Source: Candidatus Woesearchaeota archaeon
GTDB taxonomy: Archaea; Nanobdellota; Nanobdellia; Woesearchaeales; GW2011-AR9
DNA: 59,217 nucleotides
Reading direction: 5' to 3'
NCBI GenBank assembly: GCA_043797205.1
Contig: JAZDQB010000014.1
Coordinates: 1-59,217, forward strand
Every line of letters starts with the position of its first letter. Positions within the stretch are counted from its first letter, which is position 1. Below, piece after piece: positions 1,600 to 59,217 of the stretch. The notes below the pieces were generated by a model. That model saw nothing but the letters and a program-made list of their open reading frames with translations. It was not told the DNA's origin and did no database searches. The position numbers and the translations under genes are program-made.

Positions 1600-1776
1600 C
1601 ATTTCTTTTTAATAAATTTGTTAATATTAAAAAATTAAGATACTTTAATATAGAAGAATTAAAGGATGAAACTATTTTCCCGAAAATCATAATGGATAAG
1701 ATGTGGAAAGATTATAAAAACGATTTTCTTTCTATCAAGTTTATTGGCATGGATCAATAACTCCGGGGTAATGTTT

Positions 1777-2373: not shown

Positions 2374-2456
2374 AGTTATACGAAACAGTAGATATTCTTA
2401 AATTTTTGCTCTTTATGACATAATCTTTAAATATTAGTGCTACCTCATAGTGATTA

Positions 2457-44872: not shown

Positions 44873-45271
44873 ATGAAGTTTAATCTATCTGCATTAAAAA
44901 AATTGTCTCAGAAACACAATCTTAAGCTGTTGGTGGCTTTTGGTTCTCAGATTAGTGGTAAGATTCATAAAGAAAGTGATTTAGATTTGGCTTTCTTTCC
45001 GAATGGAAATGTTGATGAAGAAAAGTTGTACCAAGATTTAGTTCACTTGTTTAAGAAGGCCGATATTGATTTAATAAACTTGGCCACCACCCACAATCAG
45101 ATTCTCCGTTTTAAAATCCTTAATTCTGGAAAAATTCTTTACGAAGAGGAGACAGGGATTAAAAGTACAATGGAATGGCAGAGTTATTTTGATTATTGCG
45201 ACTTTAAGAAGTATTTTGATTTGCGCAGTTCTATTCTTGACAAGAAAATTGGTGAGATGATTCATGGATAA
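44873..45271 (+). CDS. mntA: MNT-type nucleotidyltransferase antitoxin
   Basis: LLVAFGSQISGKIHKESDLDLAFF. Confidence 0.75.
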   Translation: MKFNLSALKKLSQKHNLKLLVAFGSQISGKIHKESDLDLAFFPNGNVDEEKLYQDLVHLFKKADIDLINLATTHNQILRFKILNSGKILYEEETGIKSTMEWQSYFDYCDFKKYFDLRSSILDKKIGEMIHG

Positions 45272-45671
45272 GATAATTATCGAGAGCAAGATTAGTTCTT
45301 TGCTCACTTTGTTGGAAAAGCTGAAAGGTATTCTTAAAGAGTACGAAACAAATAAAACCTTAAAGGAGATTATTTTTTATGCTGCAGAAAAGAAAGCAGA
45401 AGAAATTGTGGAACTAGCTATTTCCATTAATCAGGAATTGCTGAGGGAAAAAGGAAAAACAAGTTTAAGCTATTATGACAGTTTCATAGATTTAAAGGTG
45501 TTTAAGTCTTTTTCCGAATCGGAGCTGAAGGAATTAGCCAGTACCGCCGGATTTAGGAACAGGTTGGCTCACGAATATTTGGAAGTTAATGAAGAGATTG
45601 CCGTAAGATCGATGAAGAATCTTCTAAGGATCTATCCTCCTTACCTGCAGAAGGTAAAAAAGCTTCTTTAA
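45264..45671 (+). CDS. hepT: HepT (DUF86) HEPN-domain toxin
   Basis: The R-x4-H motif is FRNRLAHEY. It overlaps the MNT gene by 8 nt. Confidence 0.75.
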   Translation: MDKIIIESKISSLLTLLEKLKGILKEYETNKTLKEIIFYAAEKKAEEIVELAISINQELLREKGKTSLSYYDSFIDLKVFKSFSESELKELASTAGFRNRLAHEYLEVNEEIAVRSMKNLLRIYPPYLQKVKKLL

Positions 45672-45732: not shown

Positions 45733-48198
45733 ATGGACCTAGATCGGCACAAAATCTGGCTAGTGGTAGGTGTAATTGTAGTGGTGGTAGCGCTAGTCTT
45801 AGGGTTATTATATTTCTCTGGTTTTAAAGAAGCAGTGGTGGGGCAAGGAAGCTTTTCAGGGGTTCCTAAACCTATTCCTAAACCCATTTATGGGGATCAG
45901 TTTCCTATTGATAATTTTCTACAGAAAGAGAATCTTAGTTCTTGCAAGAGTTTCGGCTGGGTTAGCGGAACGATTTATACTTTGAATCAGTCTATTTCTT
46001 TTAATAAGTCCGGTGAGTCTTGTATGGTAATTGATGCCGACAATGTAGTTCTTGATTGTCAGGGACATTCAATCCGTTTTATCAGTTCAGCGAGCTCTGT
46101 CGCAATCAAATTATGGTCTAAAAATAATTTCTTCCTTCAGAATTGTAATATTACTGGATTTAGAGGAGGAATAGATATGTATAATTCTTCTGGAAACATG
46201 ATTCGAAACAATTTTTTTGAAACTACTGAATCTGGTGTTAATGGTCAAACTAAAAGTAATAGTTTTACTTTGTTTAACAATAGTTTTAAATCAAATAAAT
46301 ATGGGGTGAAGGTTGAGAGTTCTACTGCCGTAAATGTTCTTAATAATACCTTCCGATTTAATAAAATTGGTGGTTTGTATTTTACAAAAATAATCAATAG
46401 TTCTATTCAAGGAAACTCTTTTTCTGATGGTGAGGGCGATGGTATTTATTTGGAATTAACCAATTCTACTTTGATTTCTTTTAATAACATTACTAAAAAA
46501 GTGTATGGGGTAAAGAGCATAAAATCCCATAATAATATCTTTGTGAATAATATCGTTAATTATAATCTCATCCCGGGAGGAGGAGGAACAGGTTTTTACT
46601 TAGAGAAGTCTGATAACAACAATATTAGTGGTAACATTGCTAAACATAACGGGCGAATCGACTTTAATTGTAGTCTTTCTTCTGGAAATTATGGAACCAA
46701 TAACGATTTTACTTTTGCCGAATCTTGTGGGGGTTGGCCCAATCAGCCTTTCACTCCTATTGATTCTTGTGATACTTCTTATGATTTAGGTTCATCAGGA
46801 GGTAAACAGACTTTAATCAATATTAAACTCTCTAATAAAACATACGTTCTGACTGAAAACCTTTCTACTCAGATTACTCCTTGTTTTACGGTTGGAGCGA
46901 ATAATCTTATTTTGGACTGTCAGGGACATAGTATCGGTGGGTTAGGGACCGGCTTAGATATTAAAAATCAGCACGATATACTTGTACAAAATTGTGTTTT
47001 TAAAGGGATGGGGATTTCAGCGGAGGATTCTAAAAACCTTTATTTTTACAATAATTCTTTTAATACTGCCGGAATATCTCTCACTCGGGTTACACCAAGT
47101 TATATTGTTTCTAATTCTTTTGCCGATATGGGAATGTCTATTAGTTTGAATAATATAGGGGGTGCGCTTATTTCCAAAAATTATTTTGTTAATCCTAATA
47201 TCGGGATTTATGTGAAGAGTTCTAATAATTCTCTGATTACCAGTAATACTTTTATAAATGTCAGCCAACGAGGAATTCATCTATTTGAGACAACTTTATT
47301 TTTTATATTAGGGAACAACATTGTAAATCAAGTTCCTCTCCCCCTTCTTACTTCATCAATAACTCCAGAACGAACTTATGGGGTTTTTCTCCAAGATTCT
47401 TTTAAAAATGTGTTGGGTTTAAACACTATTTTGGGGTATGTGATAGGGATATCGTTTGGAACACCTATGGAAGGTAAGGATTATGACACTTCTAATTTTA
47501 ATGTGGTAGCTAATAATTCTGCTTGTGGTAACCGAGATGCGGATTTTTATTGCGGTATAGATCGTAGTTTAATTGGTAATAATGGAACAGGTAATCTATT
47601 TGATCAGGTTATTCCTTGTGCTTCTGGTAATTTTCAATGGCCTCGCGAGAATTCTGATTATAAAAATTGTACCATTAACTTCGGAGCGTTTGGTTCGTTG
47701 AACTATTCTACTGATTATGTTCCTCAGGGGACTGGTGACGGTATAATAACTGTCGGCAATTTAACTGATTTGTTAGACAGTGAAGGAAGTACGGAGAGTT
47801 GTCTGCCTTATGGGGATGTCTATAAGGACAACCTACTTGATACTAAAGATTTGTCCGTGCTCCAGTTAATTTTACAAATTCAAACTGATACTACTTGTGG
47901 TGCAGTCGGACAAAATTATTGCTACGTGTCAAAGGCTTACGTTTGCAAGAATGGCATAGTTAAACAAACAATCGAGAGCGATGAAACTTGTCAAGACAAT
48001 TCTTGTACGCCCTTGGGCGATGTTATGAAAGATGGGAAACTCGATACTAAAGATTTGTCCGTATTACAATTAATCCTTCAAATTCAAACGGATACTACTT
48101 GTGGCGCAACGGAACAAGATTATTGCTACGTGTCTAAGGCTTACGTCTGCAAAAATGGTATCGTGAAACAAACAATCGGGAGTGGTGAAAAATGTTAA
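45733..48198 (+). CDS. large secreted protein with a signal-anchor leader, two right-handed parallel beta-helix (PbH1) repeat blocks and two C-terminal dockerin-like plus Cys-knot repeats
   Basis: Many N-x-[IVL]-x-x-N-x-F and 'GIxL..S.NN.I..N' repeats are present, and CQGHSI occurs twice. The dockerin-like segments are GDVYKDNLLDTKDLSVLQLIL and GDVMKDGKLDTKDLSVLQLIL. N-x-S/T sequons are very dense. Confidence 0.65.
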   Translation: MDLDRHKIWLVVGVIVVVVALVLGLLYFSGFKEAVVGQGSFSGVPKPIPKPIYGDQFPIDNFLQKENLSSCKSFGWVSGTIYTLNQSISFNKSGESCMVIDADNVVLDCQGHSIRFISSASSVAIKLWSKNNFFLQNCNITGFRGGIDMYNSSGNMIRNNFFETTESGVNGQTKSNSFTLFNNSFKSNKYGVKVESSTAVNVLNNTFRFNKIGGLYFTKIINSSIQGNSFSDGEGDGIYLELTNSTLISFNNITKKVYGVKSIKSHNNIFVNNIVNYNLIPGGGGTGFYLEKSDNNNISGNIAKHNGRIDFNCSLSSGNYGTNNDFTFAESCGGWPNQPFTPIDSCDTSYDLGSSGGKQTLINIKLSNKTYVLTENLSTQITPCFTVGANNLILDCQGHSIGGLGTGLDIKNQHDILVQNCVFKGMGISAEDSKNLYFYNNSFNTAGISLTRVTPSYIVSNSFADMGMSISLNNIGGALISKNYFVNPNIGIYVKSSNNSLITSNTFINVSQRGIHLFETTLFFILGNNIVNQVPLPLLTSSITPERTYGVFLQDSFKNVLGLNTILGYVIGISFGTPMEGKDYDTSNFNVVANNSACGNRDADFYCGIDRSLIGNNGTGNLFDQVIPCASGNFQWPRENSDYKNCTINFGAFGSLNYSTDYVPQGTGDGIITVGNLTDLLDSEGSTESCLPYGDVYKDNLLDTKDLSVLQLILQIQTDTTCGAVGQNYCYVSKAYVCKNGIVKQTIESDETCQDNSCTPLGDVMKDGKLDTKDLSVLQLILQIQTDTTCGATEQDYCYVSKAYVCKNGIVKQTIGSGEKC
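47800..48195 (+). repeat. tandem duplication (2 units, period 204 bp) encoding a dockerin-like EF-hand segment plus a 4-Cys module
   Basis: Unit 1 is 47800-48003 and unit 2 is 48004-48195. Long nucleotide runs are near-identical, for example gatactaaagatttgtccgt and attgctacgtgtc/taaggcttacgt. Confidence 0.85.
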
Positions 48199-49349
48199 CT
48201 AAAAAAATTATGTTTTTATCTTTATTACTCGTGCTCTGTGCCTCTTTAGTCTTTGCAGAAAACGTAGTATTTAATATCGTTGCCCCAGACAGTGTTGTGG
48301 TAAATTCTTTCTTTGATGTTAATGTTACATTAAACATTCCTAATTCTATTCCCATCTCCGCGGCAGATATCATTATAAAACCAAATAATACGAATATTGA
48401 GATCTCTTCTGCAACTTCTGGAAAAATGTTTGATCCAACACCCGTAACTCCCGTATCCGTAAAAAATGGTAATGGATGGAATTATGCTGAAGTTGAAACA
48501 CAATCCAACAAGGCTGTATCTGGGAATAATAAACTATTTGTTACATTAAAAGTTAAAGCAAATACTGCCGGTTCAGTCGTGGTTAGTTTCGATAAAGCGG
48601 TAGCTCAAGACACTTTAAATGATGTGTTCGGTGGAGATAGAACCACTACTTCTACCTTTAAAACCATCACCATTACTTCTGCCGATACTCCTCCCGTTCC
48701 TGCTGGTGCTATTACTGCTATTAACTGTACTCAGAAAGGCAATTGGAACAATATTAGTTGTCTAGGTCAAGCTTGTGACAGTAATCCTTCACATAATGTT
48801 ACTCGGAGTTATCTTCTTCCGGACGAACAGTCCAAGAAAGATGGTAAAATTTATGGTTCTCGAAACGGATGTTGCGCGAAAGGAGAATGTGGTTCTGGAA
48901 GTCAGAGTTGTGCTTCAGCGGGATATGTTGTGTCTTCTGGTTCTTTAAACGGTACTATTTGTTCTAACTCTGATTGGTGGGTATGCAATTCTTCTCTGAA
49001 AAATACATTTACTTCTGATAATAAATACACATGTAATGGTACAGTGTGGGTTGCTTATATCACTCCCCAAGATACGGAGATTCAAGTAGATTCTATGAGA
49101 ATGTATGTTTTTTTACAGGCGGTTAATATTAATTTTACAAATAAATCTCTTAAAGAATATGCTACTATCGCTTCAGCTTTGAAAACTTACTTTAATACTG
49201 ATGATGTTTCCTATAAAGGGAAATTACTCATTAAACTCGAAAAGAAGGCTCTATTAGGATCTATCCAAACAATTTTAATTAGCTCTAATTTGAACTCCCT
49301 GCAAAAAGTATCTAAAATAGCGTACTTATTGACCCAATATTACCCCTAA
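48192..49349 (+). CDS. secreted protein with an N-terminal cohesin-like beta-sandwich and a Cys-rich C-terminal region
   Basis: The signal peptide ends LVFAEN. FFDVNVTLNIPNSIPISAADIIIKPNNTNIEISS and NNKLFVTLKVKANTAGSVVVSF follow the cohesin-type pattern. Confidence 0.5.
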   Translation: MLTKKIMFLSLLLVLCASLVFAENVVFNIVAPDSVVVNSFFDVNVTLNIPNSIPISAADIIIKPNNTNIEISSATSGKMFDPTPVTPVSVKNGNGWNYAEVETQSNKAVSGNNKLFVTLKVKANTAGSVVVSFDKAVAQDTLNDVFGGDRTTTSTFKTITITSADTPPVPAGAITAINCTQKGNWNNISCLGQACDSNPSHNVTRSYLLPDEQSKKDGKIYGSRNGCCAKGECGSGSQSCASAGYVVSSGSLNGTICSNSDWWVCNSSLKNTFTSDNKYTCNGTVWVAYITPQDTEIQVDSMRMYVFLQAVNINFTNKSLKEYATIASALKTYFNTDDVSYKGKLLIKLEKKALLGSIQTILISSNLNSLQKVSKIAYLLTQYYP

Positions 49350-49474
49350 AGATAGATATAACTTAAAAAAGACTGCTGTTAACAAAAATGGACAAGCGTA
49401 CACGAAAGTGGACAGTATCGGATTAGAGGTAACTTAATAAACCCCAAAATAATCTTTAGCTTAAAAGGAGAAAG

Positions 49475-49783
49475 ATGAAGAAAAACAACTCACAGAAACT
49501 TAAGGAATTGAAAGGCATAACTAAAATAGTGATTCCTCTCTTAAAAAAGAACGGGGTGAGGAAGGCGGGAATTTTTGGCTCTTATGTTCGAGGCGAACAA
49601 AATAAAGAGAGTGATGTAGACCTGTTGGTCCAGCTGCCTAAAGGGAGCAGTTTATTGGATTTAGTGGGGTTGGAAAGAGAATTAGAAATAATGTTAAGGA
49701 AAAAAGTAGACTTATTAACTTATAATGGAATAAATCATCGGCTTAAGGGGATAATTCTCAAAGAAGAGGTGCGGATCATATGA
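49475..49783 (+). CDS. mntA: MNT-type nucleotidyltransferase antitoxin
   Basis: GIFGSYVRGEQNKESDVDLLV. Confidence 0.8.
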   Translation: MKKNNSQKLKELKGITKIVIPLLKKNGVRKAGIFGSYVRGEQNKESDVDLLVQLPKGSSLLDLVGLERELEIMLRKKVDLLTYNGINHRLKGIILKEEVRII

Positions 49784-50124
49784 ACAAAGAACCAAGAATC
49801 TTCTTAGAGCACATCATGGAAGCGGTGAATCTGGTAGAGTCCTTTACTCGGAATGGTCCTAAAGAGAAATTCTTCAAAGACAAACTTGTCCAAAGTGGAG
49901 TGATTCGCCAGATGGAAGTTATTGGTGAAGCGGTTAAGAATCTACCCCTAGATTTTGTGAACAGATATCCTCAAGTTCCTTGGGGCAACATCGCCAAGAT
50001 GAGAGATAAGTTAATCCATAATTATTTTGGGGTAAACTTGGAAATCACGTATAAGGTAGTTAAAGAAGAACTGCCTAAATTAAAAGAGCAAGTGTCTAAA
50101 ATATTAAAAGAATTGTCCTCATAA
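49780..50124 (+). CDS. hepT: HepT (DUF86) HEPN-domain toxin
   Basis: The R-x4-H motif is MRDKLIHNYFGV. It has an ATGA overlap with the MNT gene. Confidence 0.8.
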   Translation: MNKEPRIFLEHIMEAVNLVESFTRNGPKEKFFKDKLVQSGVIRQMEVIGEAVKNLPLDFVNRYPQVPWGNIAKMRDKLIHNYFGVNLEITYKVVKEELPKLKEQVSKILKELSS

Positions 50125-50141
50125 AATAAAAAAAGAGAAAG

Positions 50142-52874
50142 ATGAAGAAAAAGAGTGTTAGAATTACGAGAAGAGGTGTTTTTCATAGAAAGAAGACTCT
50201 TCCTCCGCATTCTTGGGAACCACATCCTTTAGCACATAAAGGGGAAGCGAATAAGGCTTTTATAATTATTGCCGTAGCGATTATCGCTTTAGTGGCTCTT
50301 TCCTTACTGCTGTTTTTTGGAAAACAATTTGTGGGGCAAGCGATTACTTTTGATGTGACAGGGGCAAATCAAGCCGGAATATTTATTTATGAGGGAAGTT
50401 TTGGGACAGTGGGCAGTTCTTTTACTCTTCCGATAAAAGCTAACTTAGGAGGGCAAAAATCTGTTGCTCTTAAGTTCAATTTAACTTATGACAATAGTCT
50501 AACTATCGATTGCAGTAAGATTTCTTCAGAGTTGGATAAAAAATTTGTGATAAGCGGTAATTCTTTGGTTGTAACTAATACTTCTACTTGTGCTAACGGA
50601 AAGATCACTTTTGAATATGCGGGATTGTGTAAAGACGATACTTGTAGTAATGCTCTGACGGGAGATATGATTTTAGCGAATATTACTTTTACTGCCAGCG
50701 CTTCCAAGGATTACTACTTTAATTTCACTTTGTTGGAAGTGTATAACTTATCTGGAGAGAATATTATTTTATCGGTACAGAATGCGAAATTATACCTCCA
50801 CGGCGGGGATAGAAAGTGTACCAATACTGGCTTTCAATGGTGTGAATATGCTAATAATTTTTCTACTTGCACTAATGGACAATGGAGTATGCCTATTGGT
50901 TGTCCGATAAATACTAGTTGTACCGTCGGAAGTAATACCTCGGATCAAATTGATACAGTGTGTAAATGTAATAATTGGGCGACGAATCCTCCTGCTTGTG
51001 ATAAGTGTCAGAGTTTTCCCTCACCACCTCCACCAGGAGGAAAATGTGGAGATATTGCTTGTAATACTTCTGGAGTTACTTGTAGCAGTAATGGTAAGAA
51101 TGTGATAAACTGTTCTATCGGTTCGAGTGGAATACTTGTCAATACTTATACCGATTGCTGGGCACAAAATAAAACCTGCAAGAATGGGGCTTGTGTAGCG
51201 GAATGTTCTCCAGTCGGCACCACTTGCAGCTCCGATCAATATTCTATTTTGACTTGTTCTCAAGACGGAAAGTTAACTTCATTTGAGTGTAATCCAGCCG
51301 AAGGTTTAACTTGCAAGGAGGGTCAATGTGTCAGTACTAATCCTACTTCCAAAAACTGTACTTCTGATCGGAAAGTTTACGAGAAGATGGATACCGCTCC
51401 TACTGACCTAACTCTTGTCGACGGAAAAGTGGGCAAGGCCCTTCAGTTTGATGGAAGCAGTAATAAAATTGTTACCACTGCTATTGAACTTGGAGATTCT
51501 ATCACTTTCGAAGCTTGGATTAAATTGGAGGCGAAAGCCGGAAAAAATGCTAGTGATTGGAAGTACAATCAAGGAATAATTTCTCAATATATAAACGGGA
51601 ATTATATTTTAGATGCTAGTGCCGATGGAAAAACTCTTCAATTTTATGATACTGCTAATGATTGGGTTACAGTAGCCGATGCTAATCTTGCTGGTGCTTG
51701 GCATCACGTTGCGGTTACTCGCGATGCTGCTAATGTAAAGATTTTTATTGACGGAACCGAAAGAATAACTAACAAATCTTCCGGTGCTAATAAAGGTACT
51801 ACTAATCCGGTTAAAATAGGTTATACTGGAAATTATAATCGATACTTTAAAGGCAGCATGGACGAAGTGGCAGTTTATAGTCGTACTTTGAATTCTACTG
51901 AAATTAAGGAACATTATGAATCTACTCAGGACGGAACTAAAAATTATTGTAAGGAAGGAATAAATATTCAAGGTAGTTGCACTGATAAAGATGGTGACGG
52001 TTATCCTCTTTCTCCTTGTTCGGGTAATACTAAAGCCTCTGATTGCAACGATAGCGATCCGAAGGTCTGGAAAAGTATGACTGGTTACTCTGATGGCGAT
52101 CAGGACGGGAAAGGAAAATTCTCAGCGGAAGCAAAAGTATTCTGTACTAACGGGACTTTGCCTCAGGATTATGCTCCTAATAATGACGATTGCTTTGATA
52201 CGGACCAACAAAAAGTTTGTGATCCGGGAAAGAAATGCACTGCTGATAATATTTGTAATTGGGATTGCGGCAGTGGATGTTTGGTGGGAAATACCCGCTG
52301 TAAAGTGGGTTGGGAAAATATTCGGGAAGAATGTATAGAGACACAACATCTCTGCCAAGTGTGGATGCAATCAACATGTGCTGAAGGCTTGGTTTGTAAA
52401 AAAACTTCTAGTTCTACGGCAGTTTGTAAATCTGTTCTAGATTGCGCTTCTAATGCCGAATGTAAAAGCGGATTATGCCAAAATAATCGTTGTGTTCCGT
52501 TCCAATCCAGTGGAGAGAATATCTCTGTAGTTATTCTTAATCGAGATAATAATCTTCAAGTTCAAACTAACACTGGGTTGAACAATGGAGAAGAATATAT
52601 CATTATCGTGCAAGTGCGTCCGCAAATAACTCTTAAAGAAGGACATATCGTTTCCGTTTCCGTCAGCTATCTAAACCAATCTCAAGTGACAAGATATTGG
52701 GTGATGGAACCGACTTTAGCAGCAGGTGAAATGGAAGTGGTCGCTTTTAATCATAAAGTTCCCGAGTATGGAAAAGCGTGGGGAAACATGACTATTACTG
52801 CTTACGTGTGGGAATACTGGTCTAAAGATAATGTTAACTTACTACCAAAATTAGAGGTAAAATATGTTATTTAA
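50142..52874 (+). CDS. 910-aa surface protein with leader, cohesin-like module, Cys-rich repeats, LamG domain, DxDxDG-type Cys/Asp repeats and a C-terminal beta-sandwich
   Basis: The cohesin-like segments are FTLPIKANLGGQKSVALKFNLTYDNSLTI and GDMILANITFTASASKDYYFNF. The LamG domain (~51409-51921) carries ITFEAWIKL, WHHVAVTRD and FKGSMDEVAVYSRTL. DGDGYPLSPC..DCNDSDP and DGDQDGKG motifs are also present. Confidence 0.6.
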   Translation: MKKKSVRITRRGVFHRKKTLPPHSWEPHPLAHKGEANKAFIIIAVAIIALVALSLLLFFGKQFVGQAITFDVTGANQAGIFIYEGSFGTVGSSFTLPIKANLGGQKSVALKFNLTYDNSLTIDCSKISSELDKKFVISGNSLVVTNTSTCANGKITFEYAGLCKDDTCSNALTGDMILANITFTASASKDYYFNFTLLEVYNLSGENIILSVQNAKLYLHGGDRKCTNTGFQWCEYANNFSTCTNGQWSMPIGCPINTSCTVGSNTSDQIDTVCKCNNWATNPPACDKCQSFPSPPPPGGKCGDIACNTSGVTCSSNGKNVINCSIGSSGILVNTYTDCWAQNKTCKNGACVAECSPVGTTCSSDQYSILTCSQDGKLTSFECNPAEGLTCKEGQCVSTNPTSKNCTSDRKVYEKMDTAPTDLTLVDGKVGKALQFDGSSNKIVTTAIELGDSITFEAWIKLEAKAGKNASDWKYNQGIISQYINGNYILDASADGKTLQFYDTANDWVTVADANLAGAWHHVAVTRDAANVKIFIDGTERITNKSSGANKGTTNPVKIGYTGNYNRYFKGSMDEVAVYSRTLNSTEIKEHYESTQDGTKNYCKEGINIQGSCTDKDGDGYPLSPCSGNTKASDCNDSDPKVWKSMTGYSDGDQDGKGKFSAEAKVFCTNGTLPQDYAPNNDDCFDTDQQKVCDPGKKCTADNICNWDCGSGCLVGNTRCKVGWENIREECIETQHLCQVWMQSTCAEGLVCKKTSSSTAVCKSVLDCASNAECKSGLCQNNRCVPFQSSGENISVVILNRDNNLQVQTNTGLNNGEEYIIIVQVRPQITLKEGHIVSVSVSYLNQSQVTRYWVMEPTLAAGEMEVVAFNHKVPEYGKAWGNMTITAYVWEYWSKDNVNLLPKLEVKYVI

Positions 52875-54039
52875 TAAATTGATTTTAATGGTACTGCTCT
52901 TGCCAACTTTAGTTTTAGCGGCTACTACTGTTTTTACAGACGAGAGCAGTTATTCGATAGAAGAGTATGCTCTAATCACCGGAACATGTTCTAAAGAGGG
53001 AGCAGTGGGATTGCAAGTTTCTTTAAGTGATAATATTGTGTGGCTGGAACAAGTGCAAACTATCGATCAAGAATTTGAAGCCAATTTTATTCCTACCGTA
53101 GAAGGTAATTATACTTTATTAGCAGCTTGTGATGGCGATAAGGCTCAGAAAGTAGGTTTCTGTTATGGAAATTGTGCTGGTGGTAATGGAACCATTATTC
53201 CTCTGGCTAACGATACTAAGAAAAATCAAACCGGAACCTATTGTGGAGATGGAACTTGTCAGAGTAATGAGTCTGTTACTAGCTGTCCGGCTGATTGTAA
53301 AGTAACTCCTCCTGTAGTTGATGGAGGAACTCCTCCTAGTGGCGGCAGTAGTGGCAGTGGAAGAAGTTGTACTTCTTCTTGGAACTGCGGAACATGGAAT
53401 TATTGTGGTCCTTCTTTAAAACAAACTAGAATCTGTAATGATGAAAAGGGTTGCGAGAAGAGCCGTACGGAAGAAAAAGCGTGCACCAAGTGTGAAGAAT
53501 CGTGGGTGTGCTCGGGATGGTCAGAATGCGTTTCTGACGAGCAGGTAAGAGCCTGTTATGACGAACATAAATGTGGTTCTACTGTTCTGAAACCGAGCTT
53601 GAGAAAGTTCTGTCAAGCTAGTTATGTTTCCGGTCCGGCTCCGGCGTACGTCTCGCCACAAATACCTGCTCCCACTTATTATCCGGCCAGCCAGCCCGAG
53701 CCCACTTATACTCCTCCGGCAGAATCTAAATTAGATGCGTTAAAGCCCACTAAAGCGGCAGTTCCTTTCTCCTTCAGTAAGTTCTGGAACGATTACCAGA
53801 TATACTTCTTAGGATTAGGAGCATTGATCATAGCGATAATCATTGTTGTGGTGTTAGTAGCACATTTGGCTAAACCACAACAAAAAGTGTATAATTTAGA
53901 AGAGTTGAAAGAATGGATTGTTAAAGAACGACAGATGGGTACGAATGATACTCAAATCAGGCAGATTCTGGCTCAGAATACCGGCTGGGATGCCGAAGAG
54001 ATCAGCGCTGCTTTCAGCGAATTAAAGGAAAGAGGATAA
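52864..54039 (+). CDS. type I membrane protein with a Cys-rich ectodomain, a P-rich stalk, a TM anchor and a short cytoplasmic helical tail
   Basis: It has a signal peptide (LLLPTLVLAATT), a YCGDGTCQSNESVTSCPADC motif, the TM IYFLGLGALIIAIIIVVVLVAHL and the tail GTNDTQIRQILAQNTGWDAEEISAAFSEL. Confidence 0.6.
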   Translation: MLFNKLILMVLLLPTLVLAATTVFTDESSYSIEEYALITGTCSKEGAVGLQVSLSDNIVWLEQVQTIDQEFEANFIPTVEGNYTLLAACDGDKAQKVGFCYGNCAGGNGTIIPLANDTKKNQTGTYCGDGTCQSNESVTSCPADCKVTPPVVDGGTPPSGGSSGSGRSCTSSWNCGTWNYCGPSLKQTRICNDEKGCEKSRTEEKACTKCEESWVCSGWSECVSDEQVRACYDEHKCGSTVLKPSLRKFCQASYVSGPAPAYVSPQIPAPTYYPASQPEPTYTPPAESKLDALKPTKAAVPFSFSKFWNDYQIYFLGLGALIIAIIIVVVLVAHLAKPQQKVYNLEELKEWIVKERQMGTNDTQIRQILAQNTGWDAEEISAAFSELKERG

Positions 54040-54048
54040 ATATATAAA

Positions 54049-54909
54049 ATGGCCAAGAATACACCAAAACAAAAGATGGAAAAGGTAGAGGTTGACAAGC
54101 ACAAGATTTGGTTAATTCTGGCGATAGGTATAGCCGTGGTAGCGATAGCTTTCTTGTTATTATATTCTCCGGCGAGAGTAGGTGTGTTTGGAAAGGCGGT
54201 GAGTGTCGGAACCAGTTCTGATATTAAAGAGGGAATGACCTATTTATCTAAATTTACAGTTGATCGTATAACAATTAATTCTTCTGCTGTTGCTGGTACG
54301 TATACTTTATCTTTTGCTACAGGTAGATTTGGGTCCGTTACTGCTTCTCTTAAAGCATCTAATGGTAATATAATTTCAGAAATGAAATATAACCAGAATG
54401 ATTCTGTTTCTAGATCTAAACCTTTTGTTTTAAAATTGAACTATTTTAATTTATCTATCATTGGACCAATAACAGGAGAGTCTGTTAATGTTAGCCTTCT
54501 TCCTCGATGGTTAAATAATAAGACTATCACTCTTCAGGAAGTTTCTCCGGCTTGCGTTGTAGGATTTGTCAGCAGTTGTAGTAATGCTACTTCTTGCAAA
54601 AATGCAAGAGGTTATTGGTATGTGGATAAATGTTATAGTACTTGTCCTGCTGATACTACTCCCGGTAATGGTATTTGTACTGCTACCACTCCTACTGCTA
54701 CTTGCACCGCAGAACAGGAACTTGTTGGGGATACTTGCTTCTTAAGTGGAGATTTTAATAATGATAAGGTTGTAAATGAATCAGATTTTAGCGATCTTAC
54801 TAAAATTACAGAAAAAATAAACTCTTTGAAGTCCAACCTCCAAGAATTAAATAAGTACTTATGGGTTGTTTACCATAACTTTCAACCTAGTTCTGGAGGT
54901 GCACAATGA
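54049..54909 (+). CDS. leader-bearing surface protein with a single C-terminal dockerin-like EF-hand segment
   Basis: The leader VDKHKIWLILAIGIAVVAIAFLLLY closely resembles that of the 45733 protein. GDFNNDKVVNESDFSDL lies at ~54748-54801. Confidence 0.55.
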   Translation: MAKNTPKQKMEKVEVDKHKIWLILAIGIAVVAIAFLLLYSPARVGVFGKAVSVGTSSDIKEGMTYLSKFTVDRITINSSAVAGTYTLSFATGRFGSVTASLKASNGNIISEMKYNQNDSVSRSKPFVLKLNYFNLSIIGPITGESVNVSLLPRWLNNKTITLQEVSPACVVGFVSSCSNATSCKNARGYWYVDKCYSTCPADTTPGNGICTATTPTATCTAEQELVGDTCFLSGDFNNDKVVNESDFSDLTKITEKINSLKSNLQELNKYLWVVYHNFQPSSGGAQ

Positions 54910-56501
54910 GAAAAAAACCGACAGCAAATAAGCCACAACCAGTGATTACTCCGGCTATCCAGAATAAAAATAAAATCATTATTATCACTGTTATCTCTAT
55001 TGTATTAATATTAGGGTTAGTGCTGTTCTTAGTGAATAAACAGATGGTGGGGAAAGTGATTGAAGGAACTGATTATAATGCCACTCTTCTATCTCAAGCG
55101 GGTTCAGCTGGAATTCCAATCAAAGCGGCCCAAGTGTTGGCCGGAAGTGAGGATAATGTAGTAGTGGGAGCTAATCTTGGTCCTAGCGGAGATGGAATGG
55201 TATTTAGTTTCAATTTTACTTACCCTTCTAATTTGGTTAACTTTACCGGAATAAGCGAGAGTTTTACCGGGGTAACCTTTCCTCAAGCTGTGATTAACTT
55301 TGAGAAATCAGTCAATTCTGGAACGGGTACAGTTAAAGTAACTGGTGCTCTTATTCCCACCAAGACGTTAAGAAATTATTCAATCTCTGATTTTGGAGAT
55401 GGTAATGTGGTTGCTCTGGTGGCATTACATTTTAAAGCGGTTAATTTCAGTAACGATGCGAGTGGTAATGCTATAACAAAACCAGTCCGGATCCAATTCA
55501 CCGAGTTTACTATTCTTAATGAGACTGGTGGTAATATAGTAACTAAAAAGGTAGGTGCTACTTTCTCAATAGTTTCTAAATTGGCCGGTCTAACCGATAC
55601 GATTACGCCACCTGACGTCTGTAATAACACCATAGCTCCGGCAGGAATGGTGGGATATTGGGCTCTTAATGAAGGTAAGGGATTAATTGCGTATGATTCT
55701 TATGGTAGTAATAATGGAACCATTAATGGATTGCAATGGCAGTCTTTTGCTAGCGATGCAAACCGTATAGAACTTAATTTTAGTCAAAGCGGTTCAGTAA
55801 AGATTCCTGATTCTGACTCCTTAGATCTTACTGGAGATATGTCCATTGAATTATGGGTGAATCCCGGTGAGACGCAAAAACAATATGCCGATATCTTGAG
55901 TAAGCATACTCCGGGCGGATATGCAATTGAACAGAATGATAATAATGTTAATCAATATGCCTTTGGTTGGGCTATCGGTAAAGATCCTGACGTTTGGGCC
56001 AACGCCACTGGAACAGTGCAATTAACTGCTAACACTTGGCAGCATCTGGCTATTGTCAAAACAGGAGCTGATGTAACTTATTACCTTAATGGCGTAAAGA
56101 ACTTTAGTAGCACTGGTGCTGGAGAGAATATTGCTATAAACAATAATCCTCTTAAGTTAGGAGATTGGGCGGGTGGAAGTAATCGCCAATTTAACGGAAT
56201 GCTTAGTGATGTCGCTATCTACAGTCGTGCTTTAACTATAGATGAAGTGAAAGCTCACTATACTAGCAGTACAAAAGGGGAAGGATATTGTGTGGCAGGA
56301 ACGGGATTGTTAGGAGATGTGGATGGAATTGATGGGGTTACCATATTTGACGCTTTAGCTATAGTTGAAAGCATAAATGCAGGAACTACAGCTAATTTAC
56401 CTAGTGCAGCTAATGCTGATTGCAAAGATAATATAACTATTTTTGATGCATTGGCTATAGTAGAATCGATTAATATAAACATAGCTTTAAGCTGTGATTA
56501 A
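54906..56501 (+). CDS. leader-bearing surface protein with a cohesin-like module, a LamG domain and a C-terminal two-segment dockerin-like module
   Basis: The cohesin-like segments are MVFSFNFTYPSNLVNF and VALVALHFKAVNFSN. The LamG domain carries MSIELWVNPG, WQHLAIVKTG and FNGMLSDVAIYSRAL. The dockerin-like tail is annotated separately. Confidence 0.65.
   Translation: MRKKPTANKPQPVITPAIQNKNKIIIITVISIVLILGLVLFLVNKQMVGKVIEGTDYNATLLSQAGSAGIPIKAAQVLAGSEDNVVVGANLGPSGDGMVFSFNFTYPSNLVNFTGISESFTGVTFPQAVINFEKSVNSGTGTVKVTGALIPTKTLRNYSISDFGDGNVVALVALHFKAVNFSNDASGNAITKPVRIQFTEFTILNETGGNIVTKKVGATFSIVSKLAGLTDTITPPDVCNNTIAPAGMVGYWALNEGKGLIAYDSYGSNNGTINGLQWQSFASDANRIELNFSQSGSVKIPDSDSLDLTGDMSIELWVNPGETQKQYADILSKHTPGGYAIEQNDNNVNQYAFGWAIGKDPDVWANATGTVQLTANTWQHLAIVKTGADVTYYLNGVKNFSSTGAGENIAINNNPLKLGDWAGGSNRQFNGMLSDVAIYSRALTIDEVKAHYTSSTKGEGYCVAGTGLLGDVDGIDGVTIFDALAIVESINAGTTANLPSAANADCKDNITIFDALAIVESININIALSCD
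56307..56498 (+). other. two-segment dockerin-like module (domain-level annotation)
   Basis: LLGDVDGIDGVTIFDALAIVESI and ADCKDNITIFDALAIVESI are separated by a 15-aa linker. This is an EF-hand-like D/N ladder followed by a helix, duplicated. Confidence 0.6.
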
Positions 56502-56512
56502 AGGTGATAAAA

Positions 56513-57325
56513 ATGAAAATTACTATAATTAAATCTTGGAAATTAATGTTGGTTTTGCTTTTGATTTTGTTGCTCTCGTCTTCAGCAGCCCTTGCGTTGA
56601 AAATTAACGTTAAGTGTCCTACGTCAGCATCTGTTGGTTCGGCTGTTGATTGTACTCTTGAAGCAGATAGCAGTTTAGTTGCACCTTTTGGGGTACAGTT
56701 TAAGATAAATGCGCCCGGATTTATAGCAGGCACTCCTTTCTTTGCGGGTAATTCACCCATCGGCGATGTGCCAAATGTGGGATTAGATAAAGACATTGCT
56801 CTGCTTGCTTTAAGTCCTCCAAATCTTAAACTTGCTACTATCAAACTAATTGCCGGTAATGTTGCAGGAAGTTATGTTATTTCAATACAAAATTTAGCCG
56901 GTAAAAGTGGAACTACTGTTTTAGGTGGTGGTGATACCACTTCTGCGACCATAACAGTTACCACTGGTTGTATTCCTAAAGAATGTGTTTACCAAGACTA
57001 CGCTGGTGGGATCAAAGATTGTGGAATTAAAGATGATGGTTGTGGTGGAACAATCAATTGTAATTTTCAGAAGTACACAGGTGGTTTAGAATGTCCGAAC
57101 GGACTTGCCTGTAAGAATAATGCTTGTGTCCCCTCTGGAGGAGATGGTGAAGAAACTACTGATGATGAACAAGGACTGTTTGATAAGATTACTGAATATT
57201 TAGCAGCATTGAGAGCTCAAGTTATAACTGAAAAAGGTGCAGATGCTACTCCTACCGTAATGCAAAAGCTAACGGCTATCGCTCGGGCCATTAAAGAATC
57301 TAATCCCTTCCATCAAAATACTTAA
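56513..57325 (+). CDS. secreted protein with an N-terminal cohesin-like module, a Cys-rich segment and an acidic helical tail
   Basis: The start was moved to the ATG at 56513, after the AAGGTGAT SD. The signal peptide ends SSSAALA. Cohesin-like segments are VGSAVDCTLEADSSLVAPFGVQFKINAPGF and LKLATIKLIAGNVAGSYVISI. Confidence 0.5.
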   Translation: MKITIIKSWKLMLVLLLILLLSSSAALALKINVKCPTSASVGSAVDCTLEADSSLVAPFGVQFKINAPGFIAGTPFFAGNSPIGDVPNVGLDKDIALLALSPPNLKLATIKLIAGNVAGSYVISIQNLAGKSGTTVLGGGDTTSATITVTTGCIPKECVYQDYAGGIKDCGIKDDGCGGTINCNFQKYTGGLECPNGLACKNNACVPSGGDGEETTDDEQGLFDKITEYLAALRAQVITEKGADATPTVMQKLTAIARAIKESNPFHQNT

Positions 57326-57326
57326 G

Positions 57327-58262
57327 ATGTTTTCCCAACCTAAACTAAAACAAGGACAAGTAAGTAAGACCGTAGTGATAGCTATAATCGTAATCGTCTT
57401 GCTCCTCGCTTTAGTGTGGTTCTTCTGGGGAAAACAACTGGTGGGAAAAGCGATTGAAATTCCGAATGCCGCCGGTTTCTCTCCCGTTGGCACTTTCATT
57501 ACCGGAAAAAATATTACTTTAACCGTCAGCGCCAATATCGGCACTGCTCAAACTTTGGGCGCAGAATTTAATCTAACCCTGCCAAATGGAGTAAATTGTA
57601 ATAAGATCGAAGTTAAATCGTTGCTGGCAGAAGTAGAGAATCTTACCTTAGCTAATGATACTATCTGTAAAGGCAATCAACTATTCTTCCGTCATTTTAA
57701 TTTGTTCGCTTATGATGAACACGGAGAACCAGTAATAAACTTTAAAACCGAACAATTTGATATCGCTCGAATTACTATTAAAGATGGTCTCGATCCCGGA
57801 AACTATTTCTTTAACTTTTCCTACTTTGAAATTGTAGATTTTGAGGATTATAAAAATTTAGTAACCACCATCGTTCCTATAGGAATTAAAGTTACTGGAG
57901 AAGGAGGAGAGATTTTCATCAAAGCCACGTCTAAAGAAGACAGTAAAGTGGCTACGACTGAAGTAAAACCAAAAGAATATACTATTACTACCACTATTAA
58001 TCCTTTAAGCGATCTTCCCGCCAATCATCTGGTTTTAGTTACCATCAACGTAAAGGGAGTACAGAAAGCCCAGTTCTGGCACACTCTTTCCGCTTTGGCT
58101 AAAGGTAATTCAGAAACCGTCTCTTTCGATTACACTTTCCCGGCTAAAGGTCCAGTGGCCATCAAAGCGATGGTGTGGAAGAATCTTCTATTATATAACA
58201 CTACTTGGGATAGTTTAATCACTCCAGCGGCAGAGAAAGAGTATACGGTTTCAAACGAATAG
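57327..58262 (+). CDS. leader-bearing surface protein with a cohesin-like module and a C-terminal beta-sandwich
   Basis: The leader ends FWGKQLVGKAIEI. Cohesin-like segments are ITLTVSANIGTAQTLGAEFNLTLPNGVNCNKIEV and FDIARITIKDGLDPGNYFFNFSYFEIVDF. Confidence 0.5.
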   Translation: MFSQPKLKQGQVSKTVVIAIIVIVLLLALVWFFWGKQLVGKAIEIPNAAGFSPVGTFITGKNITLTVSANIGTAQTLGAEFNLTLPNGVNCNKIEVKSLLAEVENLTLANDTICKGNQLFFRHFNLFAYDEHGEPVINFKTEQFDIARITIKDGLDPGNYFFNFSYFEIVDFEDYKNLVTTIVPIGIKVTGEGGEIFIKATSKEDSKVATTEVKPKEYTITTTINPLSDLPANHLVLVTINVKGVQKAQFWHTLSALAKGNSETVSFDYTFPAKGPVAIKAMVWKNLLLYNTTWDSLITPAAEKEYTVSNE

Positions 58263-58263
58263 T

Positions 58264-58878
58264 TTATTCCAATTCTTTTAGTTTTTTTATTTTAACCGTT
58301 ATCTTATACTTTTTGAATAGTTGGTGAAATAAAAGCGAGTTTTCTAGGGGAACAACGATACTCCCTTTCCCCAGCCGTTCTCCGTTATATTTCTGCATCA
58401 GTCCGAAGTAAAATTTACCTTTCTGCTTATATCCAAATAATTGTTTATTAAAAAGCACTCTAATTGAATTAGGATGAATGTTCTCCCAAGCAAATAATAC
58501 TTTTGATTTCCCTTTAAATTCCGCTTGATACTTTCCAAAAAGAATTATGCCATTGGAAATGATGCTAGAATGTAATTCTTTCCAGTCCTTTAGTTTTCCG
58601 ACAATTACTTTAATTTCATTTTCTATCCCTAGGGGTTTCCAATAATTTTGTTGTTTGGAAGATTCTAAAAACAAGTTGAGTATCTTTTTTATCTCTTGAT
58701 CTAACTCTTTCTCATTTTTTAGCACATCAACAAATAAATCAATGTCGCTTCCTTTGGAAGATTCTTCTCTAGCTACGCTACCATAAAGAACGATGTTTTT
58801 GATGTTATTCTTGTCTTTTGTCTTTTGAATCAAAAAGGAAACAAAATCCGTGGCGTAAGCGATAAGTTTAGAGCTCAT
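58264..58878 (-). CDS. nucleotidyltransferase domain protein (204 aa)
   Basis: IVLYGSVAREESSKGSDIDLFVDV. Confidence 0.7.
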   Translation of the reverse strand: MSSKLIAYATDFVSFLIQKTKDKNNIKNIVLYGSVAREESSKGSDIDLFVDVLKNEKELDQEIKKILNLFLESSKQQNYWKPLGIENEIKVIVGKLKDWKELHSSIISNGIILFGKYQAEFKGKSKVLFAWENIHPNSIRVLFNKQLFGYKQKGKFYFGLMQKYNGERLGKGSIVVPLENSLLFHQLFKKYKITVKIKKLKELE

Positions 58879-59217
58879 TTAAACCCGCCTCCTGGAAAAT
58901 TGTCTTTAATGAATTAAATTCTTCCAACAACTCTCTTAAAAGTTCGATTTTCTGTGGTTTACCATAACATAAAACATTTCTTCTTTCCTCTATTTTAAAA
59001 ATAAGATTAAATATTTCTTTCTTATGGGGAAAATCAAAAGGAAATTTTTCTTCAACCTTATTCTTAGAAGAGAACCAATCATGTTTTACCACAAATCCGG
59101 GATCAATAAGGTTTAATTTGTGCAACAATAATTCTAACATGTCTGCCGCTGCCGCAGAAGTGTTAAACCCAATAGTGCGCTGCCTTTCTACCAGCCCTTT
59201 TTCTATGCTCTCTTCAA
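58868..59217 (-). CDS. helical HEPN-like partner protein; the 5' end lies beyond the window
   Basis: The frame stays open upstream of the track Met to the window edge (hand translation ..EESIEKGLVERQRTIGFNTSAAAADMLELLLHKL..). It overlaps the NTase gene by 11 nt. Confidence 0.45.
   Translation of the reverse strand, partial: EESIEKGLVERQRTIGFNTSAAAADMLELLLHKLNLIDPGFVVKHDWFSSKNKVEEKFPFDFPHKKEIFNLIFKIEERRNVLCYGKPQKIELLRELLEEFNSLKTIFQEAGLNEL

Follow-up and report, generated by a model that had tools for sequence, protein, structure and literature searches.

Results

Eight co-directional genes encode exported modular proteins

We analysed a 59,217-nt stretch of DNA from a Candidatus Woesearchaeota archaeon (GenBank assembly GCA_043797205.1, contig JAZDQB010000014.1, positions 1 to 59,217 of the forward strand; hereafter the window), in which a cluster of genes for exported proteins between positions 45733 and 58262 combines putative cohesin modules with calcium-loop tails that resemble dockerins. 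Calling of open reading frames (ORFs) in this 59-kb window defines the cluster as eight ORFs on the forward strand, P1 to P8. Within each run, neighbouring ORFs overlap by 4-11 nt or are spaced by 1-17 nt, and the sole larger gap (125 nt) lies just before a pair of MNT and HepT genes. All eight products have one N-terminal hydrophobic segment, which in P1 is a transmembrane (TM) segment at residues 8-26. The ORF calls and these segments bear out a preliminary description of the locus as eight co-directional genes for exported proteins, broken only by an MNT/HepT pair. That description had used an ATG at 56513 for P7, the start of which is taken here at 56504. The genes and the layout of their products (lengths in amino acids, aa) are:

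45733..48198, forward strand: P1, 821 aa; '(D)KHKIWL' leader with TM segment, two right-handed beta-helix blocks, C-terminal pair of dockerin-type units
48192..49349, forward strand: P2, 385 aa; short signal peptide, beta-rich N-module, Cys-rich region, amphipathic C-terminal tail
50142..52874, forward strand: P3, 910 aa; conserved leader, cohesin, Cys-rich region, LamG domain, Cys-rich/MopE-like region, CARDB-like C-terminal domain
52864..54039, forward strand: P4, 391 aa; signal peptide, small beta domain, Cys repeats, Pro-rich stalk, TM segment, cytoplasmic tail
54049..54909, forward strand: P5, 286 aa; P1-type leader, beta-rich region, Cys-rich region, type-B tail
54906..56501, forward strand: P6, 531 aa; leader, cohesin, LamG domain, duplicated dockerin-like tail
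56504..57325, forward strand: P7, 273 aa; signal peptide, beta-rich N-module, Cys-rich module, helical tail MQKLTAIARAIK
57327..58262, forward strand: P8, 311 aa; leader, cohesin (57432-57905), CARDB-like C-terminal domain

Cohesin modules in P3, P6 and P8

Five of the proteins (P2, P3, P6, P7 and P8) had been proposed to carry a cohesin directly after the leader. In all-against-all BLAST the five candidate modules separate into two groups, one of P3, P8 and P6 (E-values of 3.8e-16 for P8 with P3, 1.3e-5 for P6 with P3 and 1.8e-7 for P6 with P8) and one of P2 and P7. Because a five-way alignment of all candidates is poor between P3/P6/P8 and P2/P7, the two groups are treated separately here. 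The modules of the first group are:

50322..50819, forward strand: cohesin module of P3, residues 61-226 (Pfam, AlphaFold2, Foldseek)
55053..55601, forward strand: cohesin module of P6 (family hidden Markov model, BLAST)
57432-57905, forward strand: cohesin module of P8 (family hidden Markov model, BLAST)

Against the Pfam Cohesin model (PF00963, gathering score 24.1 bits), P3 scores 24.1 bits as a whole protein, which is the threshold itself, and 27.8 bits as an isolated module; P6 and P8, like P7, have no direct match to this model. An exhaustive HMMER search with a profile of the P3, P8 and P6 modules collected a family of at least 154 cluster representatives; with few exceptions the module begins near residue 45-65, and it spans about residues 45-220. 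The hidden Markov model (HMM) of this family finds one module each in P3, P6 (5.5e-26) and P8 (1.7e-40), and none elsewhere in the window. Pfam Cohesin is matched directly by 19 of the 97 full-length family members that were scanned, the best at 1.2e-11.

The relationship of the family to solved cohesins was seen at two levels. First, a profile built from a 37-sequence alignment of the module was compared with PDB sequences, and cohesins were the only matches at E<=1, the best being the NagJ cohesin of C. perfringens (7.5e-4) and the ScaB type II cohesin of A. cellulolyticus (0.045). Second, the AlphaFold2 (AF2) model of the P3 module computed from the same alignment is all-beta and of high confidence (pLDDT 93.1, pTM 0.86). 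Foldseek comparison of this model with the PDB gave cohesins for all of the top 50 matches, at E-values from 2e-8 to 2.5e-5, and the best of them is the non-cellulosomal cohesin 2xdh of Archaeoglobus fulgidus (E=2.1e-8, TM score 0.72 on the target, ~14% identity). For the P3 module, the one modelled, the nine-stranded flattened beta-sandwich (jelly-roll) of cohesins is thus predicted and matched by fold. The two strand motifs by which the preliminary description had recognized cohesins prove to be conserved columns of the family, with F52 and F135 nearly invariant in alignment A4. Other searches were unproductive: phmmer runs of the single P3 module and P6 tail sequences against PDB sequences gave nothing meaningful, a word-index search for homologues of the P3 module returned no matches, and neither did genome and metagenome scans with P6.

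Because the family profile, the P3 model and the Foldseek comparison all match cohesins only, we read P3, P6 and P8 as each carrying one genuine cohesin, as judged from profiles and a structural model, directly behind the conserved leader. Three of the five proposed modules therefore stand, through Pfam, the family HMM and AF2/Foldseek, and those of P2 and P7 could not be verified. The three cohesins appear to belong to a lineage-specific branch of the cohesin family, for which dockerin binding is a candidate function.

Dockerin-type tails of P1, P5 and P6

Scanning all six frames of the window for a calcium loop followed by a helix returned four matches, two in P1 and one each in P5 and P6, against 0.06 expected, so that a chance origin of the loops can be ruled out. 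Cohesin modules and dockerin-type loops are both confined to the cluster within the window. The tails are:

47803..48000, forward strand: P1 type-A unit 1, 12-residue calcium loop and helix GDVYKDNLLDTKDLSVLQLIL, then a C..C..C knot
48007..48195, forward strand: P1 type-A unit 2, GDVMKDGKLDTKDLSVLQLIL plus Cys knot, on the same basis as unit 1
54736..54906, forward strand: P5 type-B tail, one canonical calcium loop GDFNNDKVVNESD, a long helix and the motif 'LNKYLW..HNF'
56289..56498, forward strand: P6 type-C tail, two loop-plus-helix repeats 33 aa apart, GDVDGIDGVTIFDALAIVESIN ... NADCKDNITIFDALAIVESIN

Dockerin_1 (PF00404, gathering score 22.9 bits) is the best Pfam match of each isolated tail, at 14.1 bits for P1, 15.8 bits for P5 and 13.1 bits for P6. 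The EF-hand-like dockerin ends ascribed earlier to these three proteins are thus present where they had been placed, and profiles of them match solved dockerins as detailed below, but all of them score below the Pfam threshold.

In P1, two canonical loops recur with a period of ~67 aa and each is followed by a Cys knot; owing to this period the tail is not a compact dockerin. Type-A tails were found twice in P1, twice in R396 of the syntenic locus L003 (44% identical to the P1 double tail), twice in L011_6993, and in P0084, P0141, P0149 and P0152. When a profile of seven type-A units that includes no Pfam-positive dockerin (A11) was compared with the PDB, the top 19 matches were all dockerins, the best at 7.5e-8, and the profile aligned to both dockerin segments, with no calmodulin-type protein at E<=1. 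A word-index search with the type-A unit alignment returned one 111-aa protein. Type-B tails occur in P5, in R443 of L003 (38% identical to the P5 tail), in a 1400-aa protein of locus L005 and in P0049. Their profile (A12) likewise gave dockerins for all of the top 14 PDB matches, the best at 1.4e-5, with the loop alone aligned.

The P6 tail is the most dockerin-like module in the window. By sequence it has the canonical duplicated layout, but position 5 of the loop is not Asp. A cohesin protein of L005 has a tail 47% identical to it (43% when five sequences are aligned); this L005 tail has canonical loops and scores 17.8 bits, below threshold, over positions 1-54 of the 57 in the Dockerin_1 model. 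A five-sequence profile that includes one Pfam-positive dockerin (A7) finds type I dockerins at 5e-10 over both segments; with the strict profile of P6 and its L005 relative alone (A8), the top three PDB matches are dockerins at E ~0.04. The AF2 model of the tail is of low confidence (pLDDT 47.9) and places helices at residues 19-30 and 51-63, one after each loop. Eight of the nine Foldseek matches of this model are dockerins, the best at a non-significant E=0.19.

Homology to solved dockerins rather than to generic EF-hands is accordingly found with profiles A11, A12 and A7, and marginally with A8. Every loop has Asp at position 12, the residue found there in dockerins, where EF-hands have Glu. 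We therefore read the loops of P1, P5 and P6, from their sequences, as dockerin-derived and not as generic EF-hands. The P6 tail is probably a divergent true dockerin, and P6 is then the one protein with both module types, as had been noted for it, whereas the P1 and P5 tails are read as non-canonical dockerin derivatives. The tails made of a loop and a Cys knot and those made of a loop and an 'LNKYLW' helix may each represent a new class of single-loop dockerin with a dedicated partner.

N-terminal modules of P2 and P7

The second group of candidate modules comprises:

48249..48686, forward strand: P2 N-module, possible cohesin-like beta-sandwich
56585-57013, forward strand: P7 N-module, beta-rich, related to the P2 module

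BLAST links P7 to P2 only (7e-5). The P2 module scores 19.4 bits against Pfam Cohesin (cutoff 24.1), over model positions 10-125 of 139; P7 has no Pfam match at all, and the orthologous P2-type modules in R443 and L011 do not match Pfam Cohesin. Searches of the PDB with P2/P7 profiles gave no cohesin match, and a word-index search with P2 found no relative but P2 itself. Comparing the P2/P7-type profile with the cohesin family by hhalign returned probabilities that rose from 5% to 14% and 30% as sequences were added, over one strand region of 32 columns. The order in which a gene with a type-A tail is followed by one with a P2-type module occurs in the window (P1, P2), in L003 (R396, R443) and in L011. 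This order, shared by three loci, hints at a dedicated pairing and, if the type-A tail is indeed a new dockerin class, would point to a new class of cohesin-like receptor.

Elsewhere in these proteins, the Cys module of P7 is 69% identical to a module in P0022, and its helical tail MQKLTAIARAIK is 40% identical to R271. Similar amphipathic helical C-termini of the form '..MLQKLTAIA.GIK..F', with no calcium loop, are seen in P2 (~49150-49346), P7 (57176-57322), R271 and L011_8913_9821, and could serve as a further element for docking or anchoring.

P4 is a conserved type I membrane protein

Conserved among related loci, P4 is a membrane protein of type I and the only one of the eight with a second TM segment (residues 315-333, window 53806-53862), after which a tail of 56 residues follows; two W..C..W..C..R.C repeats precede the Pro-rich stalk. 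It is also the best-conserved gene of the locus, with 76.5% identity to its orthologue R394 in L003, 47% in L005 and 31% in L006. In six loci sampled solely via cohesin-family membership (L003, L008, L009, L010, L011 and L012), a P4 homologue adjoins or is fused to a cohesin gene in every case, and 15 of 150 family representatives have the cohesin fused to a P4-type TM cassette. This cassette consists of Cys repeats, stalk, TM segment and a cytoplasmic tail 'LKEW..KE..MGTS.E.IK.IL.QHTGW..EEIE.AF'. The tail of P4 itself (53869-54036) reads 'LKEW..KE..MGT.D..IR.IL.Q.TGW..EEI..AF', and the same motif is C-terminal in the 15 cohesin-family representatives. No family model matches the cytoplasmic tail, and a metagenome scan with a P4 alignment returned no matches. 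P4 had been put forward as a TM-anchored base, a role consistent with the C-terminal TM segment, the location beside or in fusion with cohesins in six of six loci and the 15 fusions: P4 is likely the membrane base of the locus. The same data are also compatible with P4 as one more member of the cassette repertoire.

N-terminal leaders and cargo domains

The leader of the cohesin family has the form 'LPPHSWE.HPL..GE.NK', a TM segment of ~22 aa and 'FVGKAI' (P3 residues 19-68, window 50196-50345; also in P6 and P8). A TM-like segment is N-terminal in 144 of 147 full-length family members, after an n-region with a median length of 31 aa and a net charge of +5; '[V]G[KQ]A' stands just past it in 107 of the 147, and 'PPH[ST][WY]E' before it in 37. 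No Pfam or NCBIfam model covers this leader, which may be a lineage-specific sorting or processing signal. Small residues at -3 and -1 would fit signal peptidase I, and both a cleaved signal and a signal anchor are possible by sequence. A twin-arginine translocation or class III (pilin-like) signal was rejected, as the motif positions do not fit. In R938 of L003 and a 524-aa protein of L005, the leader and C-terminal domain of P3 are kept and the cohesin is absent (the cohesin HMM has no match in R938). A second leader type, '(D)KHK[IV]WL', TM segment and 'LLYS..VG.FGKA', is found in P1 (45733-45850), P5 (54049-54200) and R267, with a BLAST E-value of 1e-5 between P1 and P5 and 65% identity between P5 and R267.

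The domains carried along with these modules are:

46030..47652, forward strand: P1 beta-helix region, ~residues 100-640, two PbH1-type blocks (Pfam, NCBIfam)
51450..51908, forward strand: P3 Laminin_G_3 domain (Pfam 1.8e-24)
55782..56252, forward strand: P6 Laminin_G_3 domain (Pfam 2.3e-26)
52539..52871, forward strand: P3 C-terminal CARDB-like immunoglobulin-like (Ig-like) domain, common to P8

Pfam and NCBIfam scans of the eight proteins for cargo and enzymes returned NosD/Beta_helix, Laminin_G_3 and a weak CARDB match. P1 matches Pfam NosD (1.1e-28, two stretches) and Beta_helix (2.6e-24, four stretches) and NCBIfam para_beta_helix (six stretches); these matches, together with Laminin_G_3 in P3 and P6, agree with the PbH1 beta-helix blocks and two LamG domains that had been described as cargo. 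The CARDB-like domain is supported by BLAST between P3 817-891 and P8 216-285 (7.6e-6) and by the weak CARDB match of P8 (18.8 bits). In the same scans no glycoside hydrolase, polysaccharide lyase or carbohydrate-binding module (CBM) was detected in the eight proteins, and no surface-layer homology (SLH) or sortase signal. As a further observation on cargo, phosphatidylethanolamine-binding protein (PBP, PF01161) recurs in proteins with cohesin-family or P4 cassettes, in L011 (1923-3908 and 10001-12496) and L007 (11040-12479).

Related loci and exchange of cassettes

A syntenic locus (L003; GCA_964363875.1 and JBBSWE010000043) lies in a metagenome-assembled genome (MAG) labelled Nanoarchaeota from Hainich groundwater well H52, with the gene order MNT/HepT, R938, R394, R267, R396, R443, R613, R271, R306. 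While R394 is the orthologue of P4 (see above) and R306 (P0003) that of P8 (57.5%), R613 has only leader and cohesin in common with P6 (47%), and R267 only the leader in common with P5. R938 has a leader 87% identical to that of P3 and keeps its C-terminal part, R396 carries the double type-A tail of P1 on other cargo, and R443 joins a P2-type N-module to a P5-type tail. Compared gene by gene, the two orthologous loci thus contain the same cassettes in recombined form. P5 (54049-54909), set against L003 4762-8126, resembles a recombinant of the R267 leader with the R443 tail. The R396 tail and R443 N-module, which intervene in L003, here sit on P1 and P2, upstream of MNT/HepT. The arrangement of P5, P1 and P2 relative to L003 suggests, on sequence grounds, a recent cassette rearrangement.

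A Woesearchaeota scaffold (L005) has the order P3-like gene, P4 homologue, and large proteins with cohesins and type-B or type-C tails. Of the six sampled loci, four have dockerin-type loops in neighbouring genes. For example, neighbours in L008 have precomputed, Pfam-positive Dockerin_1 matches, and four proteins of L012, one truncated by the end of the contig, carry dockerin-type tails. L009 and L010, which likewise contain cohesin and P4 genes, gave no dockerin-type loop among the genes scanned. Single proteins can hold both module types: P0022 combines a family cohesin with a Pfam-significant Dockerin_1 (1.6e-8), and P0108 a cohesin with NosD and a dockerin. A calcium-loop tail stands at the end of ~8% of family representatives, and the related loci, too, have one cohesin per protein. 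Locus L006 (CAYSWQ010000017.1), labelled 'uncultured Methanosarcinales' and with a GC content of 32.7%, has two cohesin-family genes followed by a P4 homologue; it is a DPANN contig that was binned wrongly, or else a homologue from the host side.

Genomic context of the cluster

Two MNT/HepT pairs were identified at the cluster:

44873-45271 and 45264-45671, forward strand: MNT/HepT pair directly upstream of the cluster (Pfam Polbeta 4.3e-15, HepT-like 1.6e-17)
49475-49783 and 49780-50124, forward strand: MNT/HepT pair inside the cluster (Pfam NTP_transf_2 5.7e-15, HepT-like 3.9e-25)

In both, an NTP_transf_2/Polbeta-type gene adjoins a HepT-like gene, the arrangement that defines this toxin-antitoxin type. 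Altogether three nucleotidyltransferase/HepT-type toxin-antitoxin modules flank and interrupt the cluster (44873-45671, 49475-50124 and, on the reverse strand, 58264-59140), and an MNT/HepT pair directly upstream of the cohesin gene is also present in L003 and L010. Two genes upstream of the cluster, a free-standing ORF (43948-44586) resembles LAGLIDADG_3 homing endonucleases (Pfam 9.3e-9). Three further genes of the window are possible surface or secretion genes, encoding a 762-aa T2SSE-type ATPase (35945-38233, reverse strand), a 480-aa protein with a weak DUF11 match (41773-43215) and a 625-aa protein with a weak Peptidase_C25 match (9920-11797, reverse strand); the last also resembles the L006 cohesin protein 1643-3052 (32% over 77 aa).

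The window has archaeal marks, namely an intron-bearing tRNA, an ATP-dependent DNA ligase, ArgRS and an archaeosine-type TGT, and its relatives are MAGs labelled Nanoarchaeota and Candidatus Woesearchaeota. The archaeal-type small genome surmised earlier is thus of the DPANN type, as judged from the labels of the relatives, the tRNA and the archaeal housekeeping genes. The tRNA gene (1480-1599, 120 nt) scores 57 bits with Rfam and was missed by ARAGORN, which fits an archaeal intron.

Discussion

A candidate self-assembling surface complex

We interpret the locus, with somewhat more conviction than doubt, as an operon-like DPANN cluster of modular surface proteins that pairs a branch of the cohesin family with dockerin-derived calcium-loop tails and assembles on the cell surface. 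After export, Ca2+-dependent cohesin-dockerin pairing would tie the products together with one socket per protein, giving a network and not a multi-socket scaffold. This network would be held at the membrane via P4, the N-terminal hydrophobic segments or both, and the resulting heteromeric assembly would display LamG, beta-helix, Cys-rich and CARDB-like domains, which would bind glycans or the surface of another cell. Rapid exchange of modules would diversify the display. Here we infer binding, calcium dependence, topology (cleaved signal or signal anchor) and an adhesive role of the products; a role of the locus in host contact is pure conjecture.

Several of the results weigh against this interpretation. 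No dockerin candidate attains the Pfam gathering score (13-16 versus 22.9 bits). The canonical duplicated layout is present in P6 only, P1 having two spaced units and P5 a single loop, and for the P6 tail itself the strict two-sequence profile is marginal and the AF2 model, with its non-significant Foldseek matches, is unreliable. For P2 and P7, the sequence comparisons did not establish a cohesin. The N-terminal hydrophobic leaders of P1 and P5 are of the kind that the cohesin proteins have, so that a simple picture of secreted ligand and anchored receptor is not evident. Lastly, given the small share of the family with a calcium-loop tail and the loci L009 and L010 with no loop in the scanned genes, many family members may work without dockerins.

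The closest rival explanation is a cassette-built repertoire of independent modular adhesins or envelope proteins that make no cohesin-dockerin contacts with one another. The cohesins would then be structural or adhesive Ig-like sandwiches by the membrane, the calcium loops would stabilize the tails in the manner of thrombospondin-type repeats, and the cluster would be a recombination hotspot of shared cassettes. Wide shuffling of cassettes between orthologous loci would be expected on such a model, as would R938 and the 524-aa L005 protein, which keep the P3 leader and C-terminal domain without the cohesin; the sub-threshold dockerin scores, the majority of the family that lacks a calcium-loop tail, and the two loci with cohesin and P4 but no loop in scanned genes count in its favour as well. 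Moreover, the P4 cassette is joined to many different heads, and its adjacency or fusion to cohesins could reflect shared cassette ancestry instead of partnership. However, the PDB matches of the calcium loops are dockerins and not thrombospondin or calmodulin-type proteins, both module types co-localize in the cluster and are absent from the rest of the window, and their co-occurrence recurs in four independent loci. In addition, archaeal cohesin-dockerin pairs are reported to bind specifically in experiments (references cited in PMC9012536). We regard a set of independent adhesins as possible, but rather doubtful.

In a second alternative, the modules serve docking between cells: cohesins or tails of an episymbiont would plug into complementary modules on a host, for example an anaerobic methanotrophic archaeon (ANME), a member of the Methanosarcinales or a methanogen, and shuffling would determine or change the range of hosts. 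DPANN archaea are commonly considered to depend on hosts, and the tails of P1 and P5 would point away from the cell if the N-terminal segment serves as an anchor. The turnover of modules among related loci is rapid, one such locus (L006) lies in a MAG labelled Methanosarcinales, and ANME and Methanosarcinales genomes encode many cohesin and dockerin proteins (PMC9012536). On the other hand, the window itself carries no host information, and the label of L006, which shares nothing else with the window and has the GC content given above, may be a binning error. Since the genes of both partners are neighbours in a single operon, self-assembly is the simplest reading, and we consider docking to a host distinctly unlikely.

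A true minimal cellulosome-like complex for polysaccharide degradation, with the P1 beta-helix as a lyase or hydrolase and LamG as a carbohydrate-binding domain on surface cohesins, is very improbable: beta-helix/NosD domains do occur with dockerin-type tails in P1 and again in P0108, and a Laminin_G_3 module is reported as a carbohydrate-binding module (reference 41 cited in PMC10066038), but the eight proteins contain no glycoside hydrolase, polysaccharide lyase or CBM family, neither this locus nor its relatives have a multi-cohesin scaffoldin, and the remaining cargo is Cys-rich or Ig-like, as is typical of adhesins. Cellulolytic function is rejected on the lack of glycoside hydrolases and CBMs, and the term 'cellulosome-style' of the preliminary description overstates what is present, because each protein has a single cohesin, a scaffoldin is absent, and neither glycoside hydrolases nor CBMs were detected.

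Comparison with known cohesin-dockerin systems

The cohesin and dockerin proteins of Archaeoglobus fulgidus are similar in being archaeal, in having a single cohesin per protein and no cellulolytic context, and in providing the best structural match (2xdh). A cohesin and a dockerin of A. fulgidus were reportedly described by Bayer and colleagues in 1999 as parts of one polypeptide. Here, in contrast, the cohesin (~14% identity) comes straight after a conserved leader, and its family, a separate one, comprises at least 154 clusters. The tails are of unusual form (a loop with a Cys knot, or a loop with an 'LNKYLW' helix), and a TM anchor protein is encoded together with these proteins in a conserved operon of several genes. 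The modules of the C. perfringens toxin complexes (NagJ/GH84C cohesin; 2jh2, 2ozn, 2w1n), which give the best PDB match to the family by sequence profile (7.5e-4), are likewise non-cellulosomal, with single cohesins and dockerins that join separate secreted proteins. That system is bacterial and links glycoside-hydrolase toxins, whereas the present locus has another leader, anchor and set of tails, and no enzymes were detected in it.

Among archaea, the cohesin and dockerin proteins of ANME are also highly variable among close relatives (Chadwick et al. 2022, PMC9012536). They have been proposed to attach functional proteins outside the cell and to mediate cell-cell contact, and include scaffoldin-like proteins with up to five cohesins, as well as dockerins on ABC-transporter binding proteins and S-layer proteins (PMC9012536). 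The locus described here differs in its single cohesin per protein, its LamG, beta-helix and Cys-rich cargo and its DPANN lineage. The classical cellulosome (Clostridium thermocellum CipA, OlpB and dockerin-bearing enzymes) uses the same two module families; P6 joins cohesin and dockerin as adaptor scaffoldins do, and its tail profile aligns to both segments of type I dockerins. Absent here are a multi-cohesin scaffoldin, glycoside hydrolases, CBM3 and SLH or sortase anchoring, in place of which N-terminal hydrophobic leaders and the C-terminal TM segment of P4 are the candidate anchoring elements, and the dockerin scores are sub-threshold. Giant putative adhesins of ultra-small, host-dependent Omnitrophota combine dockerin (PF00404) with Laminin_G_3 (PMC10066038). 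They resemble the present proteins as non-cellulosomal occurrences of dockerin and LamG in surface proteins of ultra-small cells that are read as adhesins, but they are bacterial, each is one giant ORF, and cohesin partners have not been reported for them, whereas here several mid-sized proteins and cohesin modules are encoded in one operon.

Non-cellulosomal cohesins and dockerins are thus already known in archaea from A. fulgidus and ANME. Full-text literature searches found no paper describing a cohesin-dockerin system in DPANN archaea, and the Hainich groundwater paper (PMC9938205) contains nothing on these proteins. What distinguishes the present locus is the lineage-specific cohesin family marked by a conserved leader, the atypical single-loop dockerin derivatives, the conserved TM partner and an operon conserved across related genomes.

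Significance

Little is known of how DPANN archaea attach to and recognize their hosts, and annotation is lacking for most of their large surface proteins, so that the locus offers something concrete to test. A conserved leader and a verified cohesin define here a family of at least 154 protein clusters, which is genetically tied to a TM anchor and to dockerin-derived tails in an operon that genomes of the Woesearchaeota/Nanoarchaeota type share. The locus is of use to DPANN surface biology and to module engineering, with the pairing itself a prediction. Should the modules not pair, the family would still mark a fast-evolving surface repertoire of value for the study of host specificity. If they do pair, the cohesin-dockerin principle would extend to surface assembly in ultra-small archaea, and the locus would supply new orthogonal plug-and-socket pairs, including possible single-loop, disulfide-stabilized dockerin variants.

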